A DNA stretch of 63,343 nt, from positions 1 to 63,343 of the forward strand of contig JAVBPT010000020.1 in the NCBI GenBank assembly GCA_031549455.1, given 5' to 3'. Under the pieces are notes generated by a model. That model did no database searches. It had not been told where the DNA came from and saw nothing but the letters and a program-made list of their open reading frames with translations. A program made the translations under genes and the position numbers. Position 1 is the stretch's first letter; the number at the start of each line of letters is the position of its first letter. Source of the stretch: Eubacteriales bacterium. Its GTDB lineage: Bacteria; Bacillota; Clostridia; Lachnospirales; JAKSVV01. Below, in pieces: positions 16,080 through 25,319 of this stretch.

Positions 16080-16493
16080 ATGAACAGCCGTACGAGTGAA
16101 GAGCTAATGGCAGAGTGCTCAAACCTGAGAGAGCAAGTTGAGAAGTATAAGGAAACCATTAAGCTTTATGAGCATCATTTTGAAAAAGCGAACAATGAGT
16201 TCAAACAGATGCAGGAAGAAACAAGATACATGAAACAAACAACAGAAGACTTAAGAGCTCAGATGAAAAGAATTATTACGGAGTATAACAACATTGTGAT
16301 TAAGCATAAAGAGATTGAAGAAGCTTTCATCAGCGTTTCATATATGGCGAAAACATCACCAGAGGAGTGTATCCGAAAGCTGAGTGATTACTATGACCAA
16401 TTCCAAACTGTTGTGGAGGAGACCATTAAGAAAGAGAAAGAACAACAGGCATCAAACGCCAGACATTTTACGATTATAAGAGGTGGAAAATAA
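16080..16493 (+). CDS. Hypothetical coiled-coil protein
   Basis: Strong RBS, E/K/Q-rich heptads, C-terminal FTIIRGGK. Confidence 0.75.
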   Translation: MNSRTSEELMAECSNLREQVEKYKETIKLYEHHFEKANNEFKQMQEETRYMKQTTEDLRAQMKRIITEYNNIVIKHKEIEEAFISVSYMAKTSPEECIRKLSDYYDQFQTVVEETIKKEKEQQASNARHFTIIRGGK

Positions 16494-16509
16494 GGTTTTG
16501 AGGAAGAGA

Positions 16510-17934
16510 ATGAATAGATATTGTAAAATCCTATTATTGATGTTTTTTACACTGCTATGTGTGCATACAGATTCGTTCGGGACAGAGGTAACAACTCTGC
16601 CTCTCAATCGCAATGCCGTTTTTAATTATATCAATGACTATCGAAGCTATTTTGGCATAGAGAAGTTATCACTGGATGATCGACTCAATAAGGCGGCGGA
16701 TAGTCATGCGGTTTACCTAAAAACCAATACCCTTTTAACCATTGAAGAAGAGAAAGAAAAGAAAGGCTTTACGGGCACCTACCCTTGGAATAGGGCCTCT
16801 TATTATGGTTTTGATTCCGCAAGTGTCTATGAAGAAGTTAAAAAAGATAGCAAGAACTATAGGCGAATTGTGATGGACATCATGAGCGATCCCATTAAAA
16901 GAGCCCAGTTTTTGAGCAGTGAATATGAAAAAATAGGCATAGGGATCATTGCTGACCTCTATGTTTTTGACTTTTCAAAATCCAAAGAGGGCACACTAAA
17001 AGATACGCTCATCGAATTTCCGAAATCCGGGAGCACGATCACAAACCTATTTCTGGATGCTCAAAAGAGCAACCCGACCGTTTCATTGACACTTTACTCA
17101 AGGGATGATGTGAGAGAGATACAAAGTGTGACAGGATTTATTCGAAACCAAAAACTTGGTAGGAATGAACAAGTGACCTTTTCCTCTCAGATTGTAAATA
17201 AAAACAAGGTGGTGGGTTCCATCAGCACCGGAAAAGCACTGAGCTTTAATACAGAATATACGGCGAGCATTAGCATTATCTATGTTACCGCATCCAATAT
17301 CAAAAAAACCGTGGAGAAGGTATGGAACTTTAAAATAGATATAGAAGCAAATCAGGATACCCTTTTCACGTATAAGCCAATCAAAAGTGTGAAGACGGTG
17401 AAGAATGCAAAGGATCATTGGGCTGAAGACGTCATCAACTCTTTTTATACCAATGATTATATCAGAGTAGACGCGAACGGAAATTATTCGATAGATCAAC
17501 CGATGAATCGAATCGAGTTTGCCGAAATGATTTTTAGGGCACTAGAACTAACAAGTAGTGGAAGCAAAAAAAGTTTTATAGATGTAATCGGAGACGAAAA
17601 GCAAAGGTATGCAAATGAGATGTACCAGTATAATATTATGCAGGGAGTAAGCGATAACGAGTTTTCTCCAAACACAAACCTGACAAGGGAAGAGGCGGCG
17701 GTTATTGTTGTAAACATTCTTGAAAAAACAACCGGAAAACTAATCATTGCACAAGATAAGCAACAAATTTTTACAGATCTTTTGGATTGTCAAGTTTGGT
17801 CAAGGGAAAGTGTTAAAAAGGCTGCTTCTTCTGGACTGATGAAGGGAAGAGAGGATGGAATATTTTATCCTAAGCAGGTTTTAACCAAGGCAGAGGCAAT
17901 CACTTTACTATATAGACTGATAAGAATGGTTTAG
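16510..17934 (+). CDS. CAP/SCP-domain plus C-terminal SLH protein
   Basis: INDYR..G...L..DDRLNKAADSHA, FTGTYPWNRASYYG (CAP); HWAE, LTREEAA, GLMKGREDGIFYP, LTKAEA (SLH). Confidence 0.85.
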   Translation: MNRYCKILLLMFFTLLCVHTDSFGTEVTTLPLNRNAVFNYINDYRSYFGIEKLSLDDRLNKAADSHAVYLKTNTLLTIEEEKEKKGFTGTYPWNRASYYGFDSASVYEEVKKDSKNYRRIVMDIMSDPIKRAQFLSSEYEKIGIGIIADLYVFDFSKSKEGTLKDTLIEFPKSGSTITNLFLDAQKSNPTVSLTLYSRDDVREIQSVTGFIRNQKLGRNEQVTFSSQIVNKNKVVGSISTGKALSFNTEYTASISIIYVTASNIKKTVEKVWNFKIDIEANQDTLFTYKPIKSVKTVKNAKDHWAEDVINSFYTNDYIRVDANGNYSIDQPMNRIEFAEMIFRALELTSSGSKKSFIDVIGDEKQRYANEMYQYNIMQGVSDNEFSPNTNLTREEAAVIVVNILEKTTGKLIIAQDKQQIFTDLLDCQVWSRESVKKAASSGLMKGREDGIFYPKQVLTKAEAITLLYRLIRMV

Positions 17935-17946
17935 GGGGGATAAAAT

Positions 17947-18744
17947 ATGTTAAACTTTATCATCTGTGATGATGATACAACGAGTGTGAGAGCAATTGAA
18001 AAGGCACTTGAGAAAATTATTGCAAGGAAAGAGGTTCCATCCGAGATTACACTTGCAACCAGTGAGCCTCAAAAAGTATTGGAGTATGTGGATCATGCCA
18101 AAATGACCACAGAGGTGACCAACGTTTACATCCTGGATATTGATCTAAATTATAAGATTACGGGTCTTGAGATTGCAAGAAGGATTAGGAAAGTAGACAC
18201 CTTGGCCTATATCATCTTTATCACAGGCCATCTTGAGTTTGCCATGTTAACGTATAAATATAAAATCAAAGCTTTTGAATATTTAACCAAACCCGTTAGC
18301 TTTGATGATTTTTCAAAATGTATAGCGGATTTGATGAAAGACTATAACAAACTGAGCAGTCTAATGGAGAGTGATGGTAATGTATACTTTCCGATTAAGG
18401 CGGGACAGATTGTTCACAATGTGAGAATCAACGACATTATTTATGTGGAAGCCTCTGGACCCAAGGTCATCTTTCACACACCGACAGCCATTATTGAGTC
18501 TTACACAAGCCTGACATTGGTCTATAATGCCCTGTGTGGTATGAGTGAAAACTTCTTTAGAATTCACAGGACCTACGTCATTAACCTGTTGCACATTAAG
18601 GAAATCAATTACTATAGCTTTTATGTGGTGCTTGACAACAATGCAAAATGTCCAATTGCAAGGGTCAAAAGAGGAGAGATTAGAAAAAAATTAAATTATT
18701 TTAAACCATCAGGGGATGGGCTAAAAAAAGGAGAAGCCAAATGA
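17947..18744 (+). CDS. agrA: LytTR-family response regulator (AgrA-like)
   Basis: ICDDD, ILDIDL, GLEIARRIR, IIFITGH, YKIKAFEYLTKP; LytTR FFRIHRTYVINL. Confidence 0.8.
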   Translation: MLNFIICDDDTTSVRAIEKALEKIIARKEVPSEITLATSEPQKVLEYVDHAKMTTEVTNVYILDIDLNYKITGLEIARRIRKVDTLAYIIFITGHLEFAMLTYKYKIKAFEYLTKPVSFDDFSKCIADLMKDYNKLSSLMESDGNVYFPIKAGQIVHNVRINDIIYVEASGPKVIFHTPTAIIESYTSLTLVYNALCGMSENFFRIHRTYVINLLHIKEINYYSFYVVLDNNAKCPIARVKRGEIRKKLNYFKPSGDGLKKGEAK

Positions 18745-21353: not shown

Positions 21354-21388
21354 AAAAAGCTGGGATTAGCTTAAATCCTGGCTTTTTT
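21354..21388 (+). terminator. Intrinsic terminator
   Basis: aaaaagctgggatt...aatcctggctttttt. Confidence 0.7.
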
Positions 21389-21527
21389 GAATGCATCAGA
21401 ACCCAAAATAGATTTTGATATTATAGTAATAAAATTTTAAAAGGAGAACACTAGACAAATAAAAAAATGAGTATAAGATAGGAAGTATCTTTTTGTTGAG
21501 AAATGTACAATTGTGTTTGGAGGTACT

Positions 21528-22913
21528 ATGGATTCGTTTTGGGAGTTTTTTAAAATGACATTGGTGATAAACATGTATTTTGGTCTTGTTTTTGCTTATG
21601 TAAATTTATTTGAATTAAAAATATTTATGGATATCAAATGTAAAAATATCATGAAGTATGTATTGAGTATTGCAGTCATGCTAGTTATCGTAAATATTTT
21701 TTTAGATAATTTGTCGAGAATTTCATATGTACTCTATGAGGCTGATAGCGCCGTTTTGTTTATTATAAAGTTTGTGCTCATGGCACTTACCCTCACGGTA
21801 GTCAATAAAATATTTTTCAAAAAGAGTTTTCTATATCTTTTTTTGCAGAGCTGTATCATGTTCGGGTTATTGAATATATCAGATTTTCTACAAATAAAAT
21901 ATAATCCTTTAATAGAATTAGGGAGCGAGGTTAGATTTAAAATAATATCAGATTTTCAGTTTTACTTTATTATTTCATCTATATCTTTATTGATTACTGC
22001 AGTGATTATCCTTGTGATCTATTTGATCCGTTTGTTTATTGATAGGTTACTAATAAACAAAAAGACAAGAAAAATTGTACCATATACGATTTATGCAATT
22101 TTTAGTTGTTATATTGTATACATTGTTGTTTTGAACATGATTGATATTGCGGGTTTAAGAAGTAAAAGTGAGCTGATAATTAGTAATACGCTTATCTGTT
22201 TATTCCTCTTAGTGTCAGTGCTCTTTATACAAATAATAAATAAATATCATATTGTAGATGATGAGAATGAAAATTTAAAAGCGTACTCGGTTGCAGTGGA
22301 TGGAAACATACTGGAGCTTAGACGATTTAGACATAACTATTTAAATATTTTAAATACCATGTTTGGGTATATAACAACGGATGATATGAATGGTCTGGAA
22401 GTCTATTTTAATCAGGTTTTAAATCAAAGCGAATCGATGAGAAATTTAACTTTAAGTGGTCTAGAAAAGATCATGGACCTACCATTAAAAAGCATTTTGG
22501 CTATAAAATTGAACAACGCTACAAGTAAAAATATAAGCATAGAAGTGTATGTGCCTAGAAGTTTTAAAATGTACAACATTGAGCTATGTGACTTATGTGA
22601 AATGTTGGGGGTATTTTTAGATAATGCGATAGAAGAATGTGAAAAGGTATTAGAGAAGACTCCCAAAATTCTAGTGAGTTTTGAAAGGGATTATGAGAAT
22701 AGTATTATAACCATTGAAAATACATATCACGAGAAACCGGAACTGAGCGATTTATATAAAATGGGGGTTTCAACGAAAGGAGAAAATAGAGGTGTAGGAT
22801 TAGTAAGTGTTCAAAAGATTATAGAAAGACATAAAAATGATGTCACGTTAAATACTAGACTTGATGAAGAAAAGGAATATTTTGTTCAAGAATTAAAAAT
22901 AAAAAGGAATTAA
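21528..22913 (+). CDS. agrC: AgrC-like (HPK10) membrane sensor histidine kinase
   Basis: About 7 TM segments; H-box RRFRHNYLNIL; LGVFLDNAIE; G-box STKGENRGVGL. Confidence 0.88.
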   Translation: MDSFWEFFKMTLVINMYFGLVFAYVNLFELKIFMDIKCKNIMKYVLSIAVMLVIVNIFLDNLSRISYVLYEADSAVLFIIKFVLMALTLTVVNKIFFKKSFLYLFLQSCIMFGLLNISDFLQIKYNPLIELGSEVRFKIISDFQFYFIISSISLLITAVIILVIYLIRLFIDRLLINKKTRKIVPYTIYAIFSCYIVYIVVLNMIDIAGLRSKSELIISNTLICLFLLVSVLFIQIINKYHIVDDENENLKAYSVAVDGNILELRRFRHNYLNILNTMFGYITTDDMNGLEVYFNQVLNQSESMRNLTLSGLEKIMDLPLKSILAIKLNNATSKNISIEVYVPRSFKMYNIELCDLCEMLGVFLDNAIEECEKVLEKTPKILVSFERDYENSIITIENTYHEKPELSDLYKMGVSTKGENRGVGLVSVQKIIERHKNDVTLNTRLDEEKEYFVQELKIKRN

Positions 22914-22942
22914 AAACTGGTGTGCGTACATACCAGTTTTTT
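22912..22942. terminator. Bidirectional terminator between convergent agrC and agrD
   Basis: aaaaactggtgtg-cgta-cataccagtttttt, A tract on one side and T tract on the other. Confidence 0.85.
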
Positions 22943-22951
22943 GTTGCAATA

Positions 22952-23062
22952 TTATTCAATCATGCATTTAGGCATTTTAGGTTCTTGCAAATATGCAAAC
23001 GGACAACTAGATGTTGAATGAGTTGCAGTGAACAGTGCACCTTTTACTAATAACTTCAACAT
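22952..23062 (-). CDS. agrD: AgrD-type cyclic (thio)lactone autoinducing peptide precursor, 36 aa (absent from ORF track)
   Basis: Translates as MLKLLVKGALFTATHSTSSCPFAYLQEPKMPKCMIE*; RBS GGAGGG; leader, then Cys, then EPKMP tail typical of clostridial AgrD. Confidence 0.9.
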   Translation of the reverse strand: MLKLLVKGALFTATHSTSSCPFAYLQEPKMPKCMIE

Positions 23063-23357
23063 AATACCCTCCAAACTCTTCTTTTCTACTTAATTCTACT
23101 ATTTTTTAAAAAGGTTATATTAAAAAACATATCAAATGGACATAAATTTTTATGAGTGGCTAAAAAATATAAAAAGGTTTTTGCTTGCGTTGCTTTTGAA
23201 CGGCCTTAATCAGTGGAAAATACGAATTGCACAGAAATATCTATGAGTAAAAAAAGCAAAAAAAAATACGCTCCCTATTCAATATACTGCAACTTTTATT
23301 CAGTAATAGCTCAATAAAGCTCCGCCTTTGTTATATTTAAGGTGGAGGTGTTGAATT

Positions 23358-23981
23358 ATGGAATATACAGAGAGAATTGCTTTATGGTTAACTGATAAAA
23401 TTGCGAAGAAGGGAGGCTACTCGGAAACAGAACTCGAGAAAATAAAATACGGAATTCATCTAAATTTAATGGGATTGAATAAGGGCGCTGTCATCTTTAT
23501 TCTTTCATATTTACTGGGAATATTCAGAATAACTTTAATAGGGTTTATTGCTTTTTCGCTATTTAGAACCTATAGTTTTGGTATGCATGCAAAAAAAAGT
23601 ATATTTTGTTTAAGCTCATCAATATTAACATTCGTAGGCACTGCCTACCTCATCCATTTTTTTAAATTAGAAACGTCTTATGTACAGGTTGGAATTTCAT
23701 ATATGATTATCTTATTGAGCGTGATGATCTATGCACCTGCAGACACAGAAGAGAGACCCATCTTACCCAAGTATCGGGATCAAATGAAAAAAAGAGCGAT
23801 TCGGAATACGCTCATTGCATTCACTATTTCGCTACTTCTGGTTTATCTAGATATGAAAATGTACGCCACCTCATTCTGTGTTATGGGACTTATAGAATCG
23901 ATGATGATCAATCCGATCACTTATATGATCTTTAGGCAGAGATATAATAATTACATTTACTATTTAAAAGGCGAGTATTGA
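23358..23981 (+). CDS. agrB: Accessory gene regulator B (AIP-processing peptidase)
   Basis: KIKYG, FRTYSFGMHAKKSIFC (catalytic His/Cys), IYAPADTEERP; RBS GGAGGTG. Confidence 0.93.
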   Translation: MEYTERIALWLTDKIAKKGGYSETELEKIKYGIHLNLMGLNKGAVIFILSYLLGIFRITLIGFIAFSLFRTYSFGMHAKKSIFCLSSSILTFVGTAYLIHFFKLETSYVQVGISYMIILLSVMIYAPADTEERPILPKYRDQMKKRAIRNTLIAFTISLLLVYLDMKMYATSFCVMGLIESMMINPITYMIFRQRYNNYIYYLKGEY

Positions 23982-23992
23982 CTCGCCTTTTA
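23965..23992. terminator. Bidirectional hairpin overlapping the agrB and whiA stop codons
   Basis: taaaaggcgagt-attg-actcgcctttta. Confidence 0.8.
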
Positions 23993-24838
23993 ATGTAACG
24001 CTTCAGATATATCCATGATTTTTCTAAGCCTATGATTTACACATGACTTTGAAAGGCCTACTAGGGACGCCAACTCAATAAGGCTTAAATCTCGATTATT
24101 CAACCTGGCTTCCGCCACCTCTTTTAGCGGGATGGCCAGATAATGGATCCCTTTTAACTTGATTATCTTTTCAATCGCTTTGATCTGTCTTAGTGAAGCA
24201 TTCACAGTTTTCTTAATATTGGATGTTTCACAGTTTATTTCCCTATTAATGACATTACGGACATCTTTTACAATCTTTGTATTCTCAAACGCCATAAGGG
24301 CATCAAAAGCTTCCACAATGCTAAGAAATTTACTGATCTGTTCAGAGTCTTTTAGATATAAGACGGAAACATTTTTTCTTCGTATGGATTTTACATGAAC
24401 CTCAAAAGAAAAAAGAATGTTCTGGATAAAGGTTTTATCCTTACTCTGTAAAAGAGGTATTTCAAGGTGATATTCTTTTGAGGGATCTTGTATATAGCCA
24501 CAGATTAAAAATAAAATCTTTATGTATTGTTTCTTATGGTCTGCACTCATATCTTCAGCGGTACATTTTTTGTGGTGTACCTCACTGATATCTCTCATGA
24601 TCTTCTCATCCTTGATCTCAATGGTATTTGATTTAGACGAATGTTTTAGGTTATAATAAAAATGGAGATCATAAATAAATCGTTCGAGTAATCGTTTGTT
24701 TTCAGATTTAAAGTAATACTTTCCGTCCTTTACCCAAACGAGATAGCGATAAAATACCTCTAACTCACATTTTACAATGTATCTGCTAGAAGGCACGTTT
24801 TCAAAGATCTCTTTTTTTACATCCTGACAAAAAGACAT
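23990..24838 (-). CDS. whiA: DNA-binding protein WhiA
   Basis: MSF..VKKE, DPSKEYHLE, YLKDSEQI, RNVINREINCETSNIKKT, SKSCVNHRLRK. Confidence 0.93.
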   Translation of the reverse strand: MSFCQDVKKEIFENVPSSRYIVKCELEVFYRYLVWVKDGKYYFKSENKRLLERFIYDLHFYYNLKHSSKSNTIEIKDEKIMRDISEVHHKKCTAEDMSADHKKQYIKILFLICGYIQDPSKEYHLEIPLLQSKDKTFIQNILFSFEVHVKSIRRKNVSVLYLKDSEQISKFLSIVEAFDALMAFENTKIVKDVRNVINREINCETSNIKKTVNASLRQIKAIEKIIKLKGIHYLAIPLKEVAEARLNNRDLSLIELASLVGLSKSCVNHRLRKIMDISEALH

Positions 24839-24839
24839 C

Positions 24840-25319
24840 TTAGTACGATGCCTCCCTAATAATGAACTTTTCTTCTTCTTTGGTTAAAGAGAAGAGGCCG
24901 GTTGTAAAGATTTCTGAATCAAGGCTTGAAAAATCTCCGTAAATTTTTGGATACTCGATATATCTCGCAACATTACTATCTCTTACAAAAACCAGTAGAT
25001 CCACGTCACTTTTAAAAGAAATATTGGTCTTATAGACATCGTCCCAATTAAATCCAAGAGCTGCCTCAATGTTTTCACATGAGGTTAAAGCAGGAAATAC
25101 ATGCATTAGATCCCATTCCTCCGGAACAATATCTTTAAAATTTAACATAATGGTACTATTGTTTACAAGGTTGCCAGCAAATGTCTTGATCTTTAACGCA
25201 ATCCTATGATCTTCTACTTTCTTATTTACATAGTACGTCCCATAAGCAGCCGCAGCAAGACCTGCAACCACGCCAGCACCTTTTAGCACAAAACCGAATA
25301 GTCCCCTTTTTTTACTCAT
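24840..25319 (-). CDS. Hypothetical membrane-anchored protein
   Basis: RBS GAGGAGGG, N-terminal hydrophobic helix, directly upstream of whiA. Confidence 0.75.
   Translation of the reverse strand: MSKKRGLFGFVLKGAGVVAGLAAAAYGTYYVNKKVEDHRIALKIKTFAGNLVNNSTIMLNFKDIVPEEWDLMHVFPALTSCENIEAALGFNWDDVYKTNISFKSDVDLLVFVRDSNVARYIEYPKIYGDFSSLDSEIFTTGLFSLTKEEEKFIIREASY

Follow-up and report, generated by a model that had tools for sequence, protein, structure and literature searches.

The locus poses the question of whether a small minus-strand open reading frame between an agrC-like kinase gene and agrB encodes a quorum-sensing propeptide, and which signal would be formed from a precursor lying opposite its own processing enzyme. 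The window (the whole analysed stretch of 63,343 nucleotides) comes from a genome of 1,481,651 bases in 74 contigs that is 98.3% complete (G000). Translation of the frame gave MLKLLVKGALFTATHSTSSCPFAYLQEPKMPKCMIE, a peptide of 36 aa identical to the one quoted in an earlier sequence-only reading, and the GGAGGG ribosome-binding site named there was located as well (Table 1). That reading had assigned the frame to AgrD and proposed a search with the TIGR04223 model. The search returned 24.8 bits (E 1.7e-5) against a curated cut-off of 19 bits, and the peptide scored 22.7 bits in a six-frame search of the genome, which holds a single TIGR04223 match and a single AgrB match, both at this locus. 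A separate AgrD HMM, for which peptides from other loci served as seed and the window's own was left out, recovered it with E 2e-9 from among 16,079 small genomic ORFs, the runner-up having E 1.7. The ExxxP follower motif is present (E27-P-K-M-P31). A Pfam scan of the peptide gave no family at E <= 1, the staphylococcal AgrD family included. The frame is a real member of the AgrD family, in accordance with the earlier assignment. The gene had also been described as unannotated and hidden; this did not hold, because the exact 36-aa protein is already present in a public predicted-protein collection (sources NCBI and Logan) and gene callers had therefore found it. Its cluster in that collection has a size of one, with no close homologue.

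Other readings of the same stretch were considered. A longer 40-aa product starting at TTG 23074 was rejected, as that start would overlap the Shine-Dalgarno sequence and the resulting protein is absent from the collection. Two plus-strand small ORFs in the gap between agrD and agrB (23136-23246 and 23213-23317) were rejected as real genes for having no family match; two others (22920-23021 and 22922-23017) overlap agrD. The best DNA match to the locus was an invertebrate-gut metagenome run, X1. One of its contigs covers positions 21834-25000 with zero differences, X1 possibly being the source sample and not an independent one. No RNA run was listed as matching the locus, and the contigs of RNA runs X2 and X3 do not reach agrD and are uninformative on its expression. 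No phage-borne relatives were found in viral contigs searched with alignment A1.

Table 1. Features of the agr locus in the window, and CPBP/Rce1-like genes at related loci
Feature	Position	Strand	Basis
agrD, 36-aa propeptide	22952..23062	-	TIGR04223 match; translation; own HMM
agrD leader, aa 1-19	23062-23006	-	ring boundary taken from related peptides
agrD predicted ring CPFAYL, aa 20-25	23005-22988	-	boundary taken from related and verified precursors
agrD follower QEPKMPKCMIE, aa 26-36	22987-22955	-	boundary as for the predicted ring
Shine-Dalgarno-like GGAGGG of agrD	23067..23072	-	sequence; 4 nt ahead of ATG at 23062
Possible -10 element TAGAAT of agrD promoter	23093..23098	-	picked by eye
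Tentative direct repeat of LytTR type (period 21 bp), CCACTCATAA ... CATTTGATAT	23129..23159	-	10-bp model
agrB peptidase	23358..23981	+	PF04647, 106.7 bits (> 23); own GGAGG RBS
agrC-like sensor kinase	21513..22913; likely start ATG 21528 after GGAGG	+	domains; TM prediction
Bidirectional terminator-like hairpin between agrC and agrD 3' ends	22911..22942	.	arms 22912-22924 / 22929-22941
Likely agrA (REC + LytTR)	17947..18744	+	detached from agrC, agrD and agrB; directly after CAP/SLH gene
CPBP/Rce1-like genes at related loci	L029:4147-4650, L030:4040-4663, L033:4024-4494, L042:4160-4732	-	PF02517
CPBP/Rce1-like genes at related loci	L051:5619-6149, L111:1199-1765, L124:2718-2999	-	PF02517

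The strand layout of the locus was then compared with the usual arrangement. The position of agrD between agrC and agrB and its minus strand had both been given correctly by the sequence-only reading, which missed the plus-strand placement of both agrC and agrB. The gene is antisense to both of them, convergent with agrC across a gap of 38 bp and divergent from agrB across a gap of 295 bp. The canonical operon, with agrD downstream of agrB and co-directional with it, is not found here, and being on the opposite strand agrD cannot share the forward transcript of agrB and agrC. The 38-bp junction is of the usual convergent size (median 35 in 123 pairs, with duplicates counted). It holds the terminator-like hairpin, with z-scores of -5.1 on the plus and -3.2 on the minus strand and A/T runs flanking both sides; the hairpin overlaps the agrC stop codon and is absent from the consensus terminator scan. 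A misassembly was rejected as the cause of the layout, as one X1 contig bridges agrC, agrD and agrB without joints and other genomes share the order.

The partner genes were analysed for the functions that such a system would need. AgrB retains His77 and Cys84, both invariant, which are the published catalytic dyad of AgrB (PMC10482373). The AgrC-like kinase has six predicted TM segments, an FRHNYLNIL His box and a HATPase_c_5 domain; it matched NF046015 with E 2.7e-38, under the staphylococcal cut-off of that model, and is 32% identical to the kinase adjoining agrD in genome G017. A terminator-like hairpin (21354-21387, z -2.3) follows the MBL-fold hydrolase gene upstream of agrC, which suggests a separate promoter for agrC. 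Two LytTR matches were obtained in the genome, and only the protein listed as likely agrA, encoded 2.8 kb upstream of agrC, has a receiver domain. This protein is 37% identical to the AgrA adjoining agrB in G026, which has the same CAP/SLH neighbour, and shares 41-43% identity with the one match of each of G017, G045 and G062. On account of this orthology it is taken as agrA and is likely the partner of the present system. The gene after agrB is whiA, spo0A is present in the genome, and two CPBP/Rce1-like genes are located elsewhere in it, unlinked to the agr locus. The four components and the AgrB dyad are shared with S. aureus agrBDCA (AIP-I to IV), as is the ExxxP follower motif (DEPKVP in AgrD-II, QEPKMP here). 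S. aureus differs in its single operon, RNAIII, a leader of 24-25 aa and a five-residue thiolactone with an exocyclic tail, and the window's kinase and regulator score far below the staphylococcal equivalog cut-offs.

Some further genes were observed around these partners. A gene for a CAP + SLH surface protein (16483-17934, plus strand) lies directly upstream of agrA, likewise in G026 (L027:3410-4882), and an SLH gene follows agrA in G045 (L219); the CAP/SLH protein may be an agr-linked surface protein. A second AgrC-like kinase of 481 aa (C73:8084-9529, minus strand; HATPase_c_5, 64.5 bits) is encoded elsewhere in the genome, and no agrB, agrD or LytTR gene was found adjoining it. It could be an alternative receptor of this AIP or possibly an orphan that senses foreign AIPs. 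At C10:16104-17262 lies a gene for a LytTR-only regulator, with that of a membrane protein after it, a pair similar to a LytTR regulatory system.

The size of the ring was assessed from the distance between the ring cysteine and the conserved follower proline, which is 11 residues in this peptide (Cys20 to Pro31). The alignment of Molloy et al. (PMC8251862) has 10 residues over this distance in the five-residue S. aureus rings and 11 in the verified hexamer CWFWSY of Rc-AgrD1. The precursor of C. acetobutylicum reads CVLVTL/YEPKMP (PMC10301443 supplement), and its CVLVTL product was detected by HRMS2 as a hexameric cyclopeptide (PMC8251862). CPFAYL/QEPKMP stands in register with it, QEP aligning with the DEP/YEP of the verified precursors. 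The predicted six-residue ring CPFAYL of the sequence-only reading is well supported by this spacing and by the register with hexamers verified by mass spectrometry. The same reading had presented it as a departure from the common five-residue ring, which was weakened by the related peptides. A set of 120 distinct AgrD peptides with at least 20 bits on our own HMM was collected, comprising 106 with an anchored Cys, 11 without Cys and three that were not anchored. Six-residue spacing was present in 100 of the 106 and seven-residue spacing in the other six, in a census biased towards six, since six-spacing peptides had been the seed of the HMM and a choice between two available Cys was settled in favour of spacing 6. 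The cysteine was at distance 11 in 84 of 101 anchored related peptides. Judged from these alignments, six residues are the norm in this AgrB lineage and no rarity.

A different ring, CPFAY with five or CPFAYLQ with seven residues, would result if a divergent AgrB cut in another register. The window's AgrB does form a long branch, with at most 38% identity among its best relatives. The peptide of G026, which has the same gene layout, shows five-residue spacing (it falls below the score threshold and is outside the 106), and Gln at follower position 1 is found in the window's peptide alone among the 106 Cys peptides. Against these points, a Cys-to-Pro distance of 11 fits the verified hexamers and 10 the pentamers, and QEP keeps its alignment with DEP/YEP, so that another ring size is regarded as highly improbable and the hexamer CPFAYL is retained. 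Side observations on the ring were also made. Seven-residue spacing occurs in L164, L167, L171, L173, L181 and L066, five of these six having an HQPKMP follower and a 19-aa leader, and would predict a seven-residue ring or an alternative register. Eleven related peptides carry Ser or Thr in place of the ring Cys, namely Thr in L041, L127 and L147 and Ser in L038, L044, L068, L089, L104, L117, L153 and L169; lactone-type rings would be predicted for them.

Proline at ring position 2 had been pointed out by the sequence-only reading. It is uncommon, occurring after the ring Cys in seven of the 106 peptides including the window's, and it is not unique, being shared with six relatives and with the CPWII core of Clostridioides difficile AgrD1 (PMC4453554). 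The closest peptide to the window's is that of L045, CPWFYL/DEPKMP. C. difficile AgrD1 is unlike the present case in being modelled as a five-residue ring, its synthetic versions being inactive and its true structure left unresolved in that paper, and in belonging to a two-gene agrB1D1 locus described there as having no kinase (PMC4453554).

Two verified clostridial systems gave the nearest comparison. AgrD of C. acetobutylicum (CA_C0079) shares the arrangement of Cys, five residues and x-EPKMP in identical register, and has a much longer leader and follower than the window's peptide (PMC10301443). Its product Ca-AIP1, cyclo-CVLVTL, is a verified six-residue, tail-less, homodetic peptide (PMC8251862), and Agr controls granulose formation and sporulation in that organism. 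The genes there form agrBD and agrCA operons with agrB and agrD co-directional, and a LanM-like effector of the CA_C0082 type lies downstream of agr; the LANC_like family PF05147 had no match in G000, a search that matched in no control genome either. Rc-AgrD1 of Ruminiclostridium cellulolyticum (Ccel_2126) likewise has its Cys 11 residues before the conserved Pro (PMC8251862) and a short 11-aa follower containing Cys, with other ring residues and a 27-aa leader. Its product Rc-AIP1, cyclo-CWFWSY, is a hexameric lactam controlling sporulation (PMC8251862). That species has four agrBD gene pairs, of which Rc-AgrD1 belongs to one, unlike the one agrD opposite agrB here. The window's AgrD adds to the known class of six-residue clostridial AIPs; its sequence is ordinary and its gene layout uncommon.

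The chemical form of the ring was considered next. The tail-less AIPs detected in several Clostridia, Ca-AIP1 included, were all S-to-N shifted lactams (Molloy et al., PMC8251862), and the half-life of the Rc-AIP1 thiolactone is 5.4 min (PMC8251862). By analogy, the final signal would rather probably be a tail-less lactam than a thiolactone, and the thiolactone CPFAYL proposed by the sequence-only reading is probably correct for the intermediate only. An [M+H]+ of 695.3221 was predicted for cyclo-CPFAYL by a calculation that returns the published 873.3389 for CWFWSY; homodetic, S-to-N shifted products escape NCL trapping. With the same gene and the same six-residue ring, the active signal could still be a thiolactone, as had originally been proposed. 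The leader might be cut one to four residues before Cys20 (S-, SS-, TSS- or STSS-CPFAYL), the N-terminus might be blocked, or a short-lived tail-less thiolactone might itself be the agonist. Staphylococcal AIPs bear tails of 2-4 residues, the C. difficile signal with its Cys-Pro core is reported as hydroxylamine-sensitive (PMC4453554), and a Paenibacillus AIP is described as acetylated. For Listeria, PMC11297923 describes a debated AIP form, with a one-residue-tail form reported and a tail-less thiolactone more active than its lactam. The synthetic CPWII thiolactones of C. difficile were inactive according to PMC4453554. As all AIPs detected by Molloy et al. (PMC8251862) are tail-less lactams, among them Ca-AIP1 with its EPKMP register, a thiolactone signal is considered unlikely and the all-amide ring is preferred.

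The occurrence of the layout was surveyed in 151 genomes sampled evenly over the order, which gave 104 AgrB matches over the cut-off after four sub-cut-off rows were dropped. Each AgrB was paired with TIGR04223 matches at E <= 0.1 within 3 kb; 24 had no agrD within this distance and 80 pairs were left. These comprised 48 in the order B>D>, 19 in the order D>B>, six convergent (one probably a mis-pairing) and seven divergent, and the adjacent-divergent layout was present in five of the 80, namely in G000, in G026 and in three genomes that belong to a single genus. The counts show that gene order is plastic and that the adjacent-divergent layout is a minority. In a second set of 152 distinct loci, biased because it was picked by similarity to this AgrB plus same-order loci, agrD was co-directional with agrB in 117 (mostly B>D><C(<A)), opposite in 11 and undetected in 24, G026 being placed in the opposite group by inspection. 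Six of seven opposite-strand peptides examined passed the TIGR04223 cut-off. The order C><D B> recurs in G017, G045, G062 and G026 and in L051 and L124, and agrB precedes agrA-agrC (B>A>C><D) in L029, L030, L033 and L042. The opposite group keeps the head-to-head agrD/agrC junction, with agrB flipped (C><D B>) or moved, and the simplest history would be that agrB left the common B>D><C<A order by being inverted or relocated. Trees speak neither for nor against a single origin of the split layout. An 81-row quick AgrB tree needs three changes; a careful 30-row tree does not resolve the placement of the window's AgrB and gives neither proof nor rejection of one clade (p-AU 0.103). Another split layout was observed within this order, with agrD tail to tail with agrB (G152, G069, G093:C2, G032:C67 and G052; L192, L202 and L208), with 58-164 bp between the HMM matches.

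The literature text searched contained no description of an agrD on the strand opposite to a neighbouring agrB; such an arrangement may be shown in figures or in the data files of a large census (PMC12180512). AIP families of the gut have already been mined at scale (PMC11953309). The nearest described case is agrD2C2 of Clostridium autoethanogenum, where agrD is likewise not co-transcribed with agrB and an AgrB acting in trans was hypothesised (PMC8748961). There agrD2 and agrC2 form an operon that lies far from agrB1 (PMC8748961), unlike the agrD of the window, which is convergent with agrC, and adjoins agrB and is divergent from it.

The leader of the peptide had been called very short. With 19 aa against a median of 23, it is at the short end and still within the range, leaders of 19 aa or less being found in eight of 106 related peptides. 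Its maximum helical moment is 0.35 against a median of 0.46 for the 120 related peptides, of which 20, the window's included, have an equal or lower value. A rival reading, for which the short and weakly amphipathic leader speaks, takes the agr genes as a relic in decay within a gut bacterium of reduced genome, where flipping of agrB broke the coupling of the system and the peptide has ceased to be produced or sensed. The small genome (1.48 Mb) is compatible with this, and no agrB, agrD or agrC match was obtained in the single other genome from the same family (69% complete), whose LytTR orthologue is only 24% identical. All four genes are nevertheless intact, with ribosome-binding sites, catalytic residues and a strong hairpin, and the split layout persists, its genes intact, in two further families of the order as well as in Clostridiaceae, which makes decay very unlikely.

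The region upstream of agrD was analysed for regulatory sites. Direct repeats of 21/22 bp are typical LytTR sites. Related stand-alone agrD genes have such repeats about 70-145 nt upstream, with best motif totals of 85 and 114 against 67-73 and 75-78 in shuffles. The repeat copies in the window precede the agrD ATG by 97 and 76 nt. A 10-bp model built on four related loci, in a register chosen post hoc, ranked this repeat first (8/2000 shuffles); it was not significant with 12- or 13-bp models (184/2000 and 175/2000 shuffles) and was not found by unbiased motif models. A search of the window for an AgrA box gave no 8/10 repeat at a spacing of 19-23. The repeat is considered a tentative AgrA site from its sequence. 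The possible -10 element was not listed by the promoter scan, whose two matches were at chance level.

Related loci gave a candidate for the leader cut. Molloy et al. called the clostridial leader peptidase unknown in 2021 (PMC8251862). A CPBP/Rce1-like gene (PF02517, the MroQ family) was observed directly beside agrB in all seven loci of the Clostridiaceae-type clade with stand-alone agrD, and a model from three of these genes matched no other locus among L001-L188. The CPBP/MroQ-family gene adjoining agrB is a candidate for the peptidase that removes the leader in the maturation of clostridial AIPs. At three of these loci (L029:8396-9937, also L030 and L033) the stand-alone agrD has a divergent neighbour, an M4 (thermolysin-family) protease gene. 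The two genes share an upstream region that holds a second 21-bp repeat, and the protease gene is a possible Agr target.

Taken together, the reading we favour, and hold to be probable, is that AgrD encoded opposite agrB and agrC is processed by AgrB to a CPFAYL ring, likely all-amide, which is sensed by AgrC and the detached AgrA. From the verified homologues, AgrB would cut between Leu25 and Gln26, shedding the 11-aa follower, and Cys20 would close a thiolactone onto Leu25. An unlinked protease, possibly one of the two CPBP/MroQ-family genes elsewhere in the genome, would cut between Ser19 and Cys20; since this cut frees the amine, an S-to-N shift to cyclo-CPFAYL would follow, the two steps jointly being judged probable. 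AgrC would autophosphorylate at its His box and pass the phosphate to the REC-LytTR protein. Because agrD appears to have its own promoter, autoinduction might perhaps act on it apart from agrB. The output, by analogy, would probably include sporulation timing.

A wider reading of the circuit is possible and is put forward tentatively. In it agrD would be a stand-alone, AgrA-driven unit, phospho-AgrA on the 21-bp-period repeat in the agrD/agrB gap raising the substrate supply only (or setting the divergent promoters differently), with AgrB and AgrC on their own promoters. The output would be cyclo-CPFAYL, a homodetic hexapeptide with a proline, which sets the timing of sporulation in an invertebrate-gut clostridium with a genome of 1.5 Mb, with the layout spread over three families of the order and a Clostridiaceae clade in which the agrB-adjacent CPBP/MroQ protein would be the candidate leader peptidase.

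The peptide alone is one more predicted six-residue AIP in a large known class. Being split from agrB, agrD genes of this kind are missed by surveys that search only downstream of agrB. The agrB-adjacent CPBP/MroQ gene in Clostridiaceae provides a directly testable leader-peptidase candidate. The split layout shows that clostridial agr loci can uncouple the precursor from its processing enzyme, and it permits testing whether positive feedback through agrD alone suffices.
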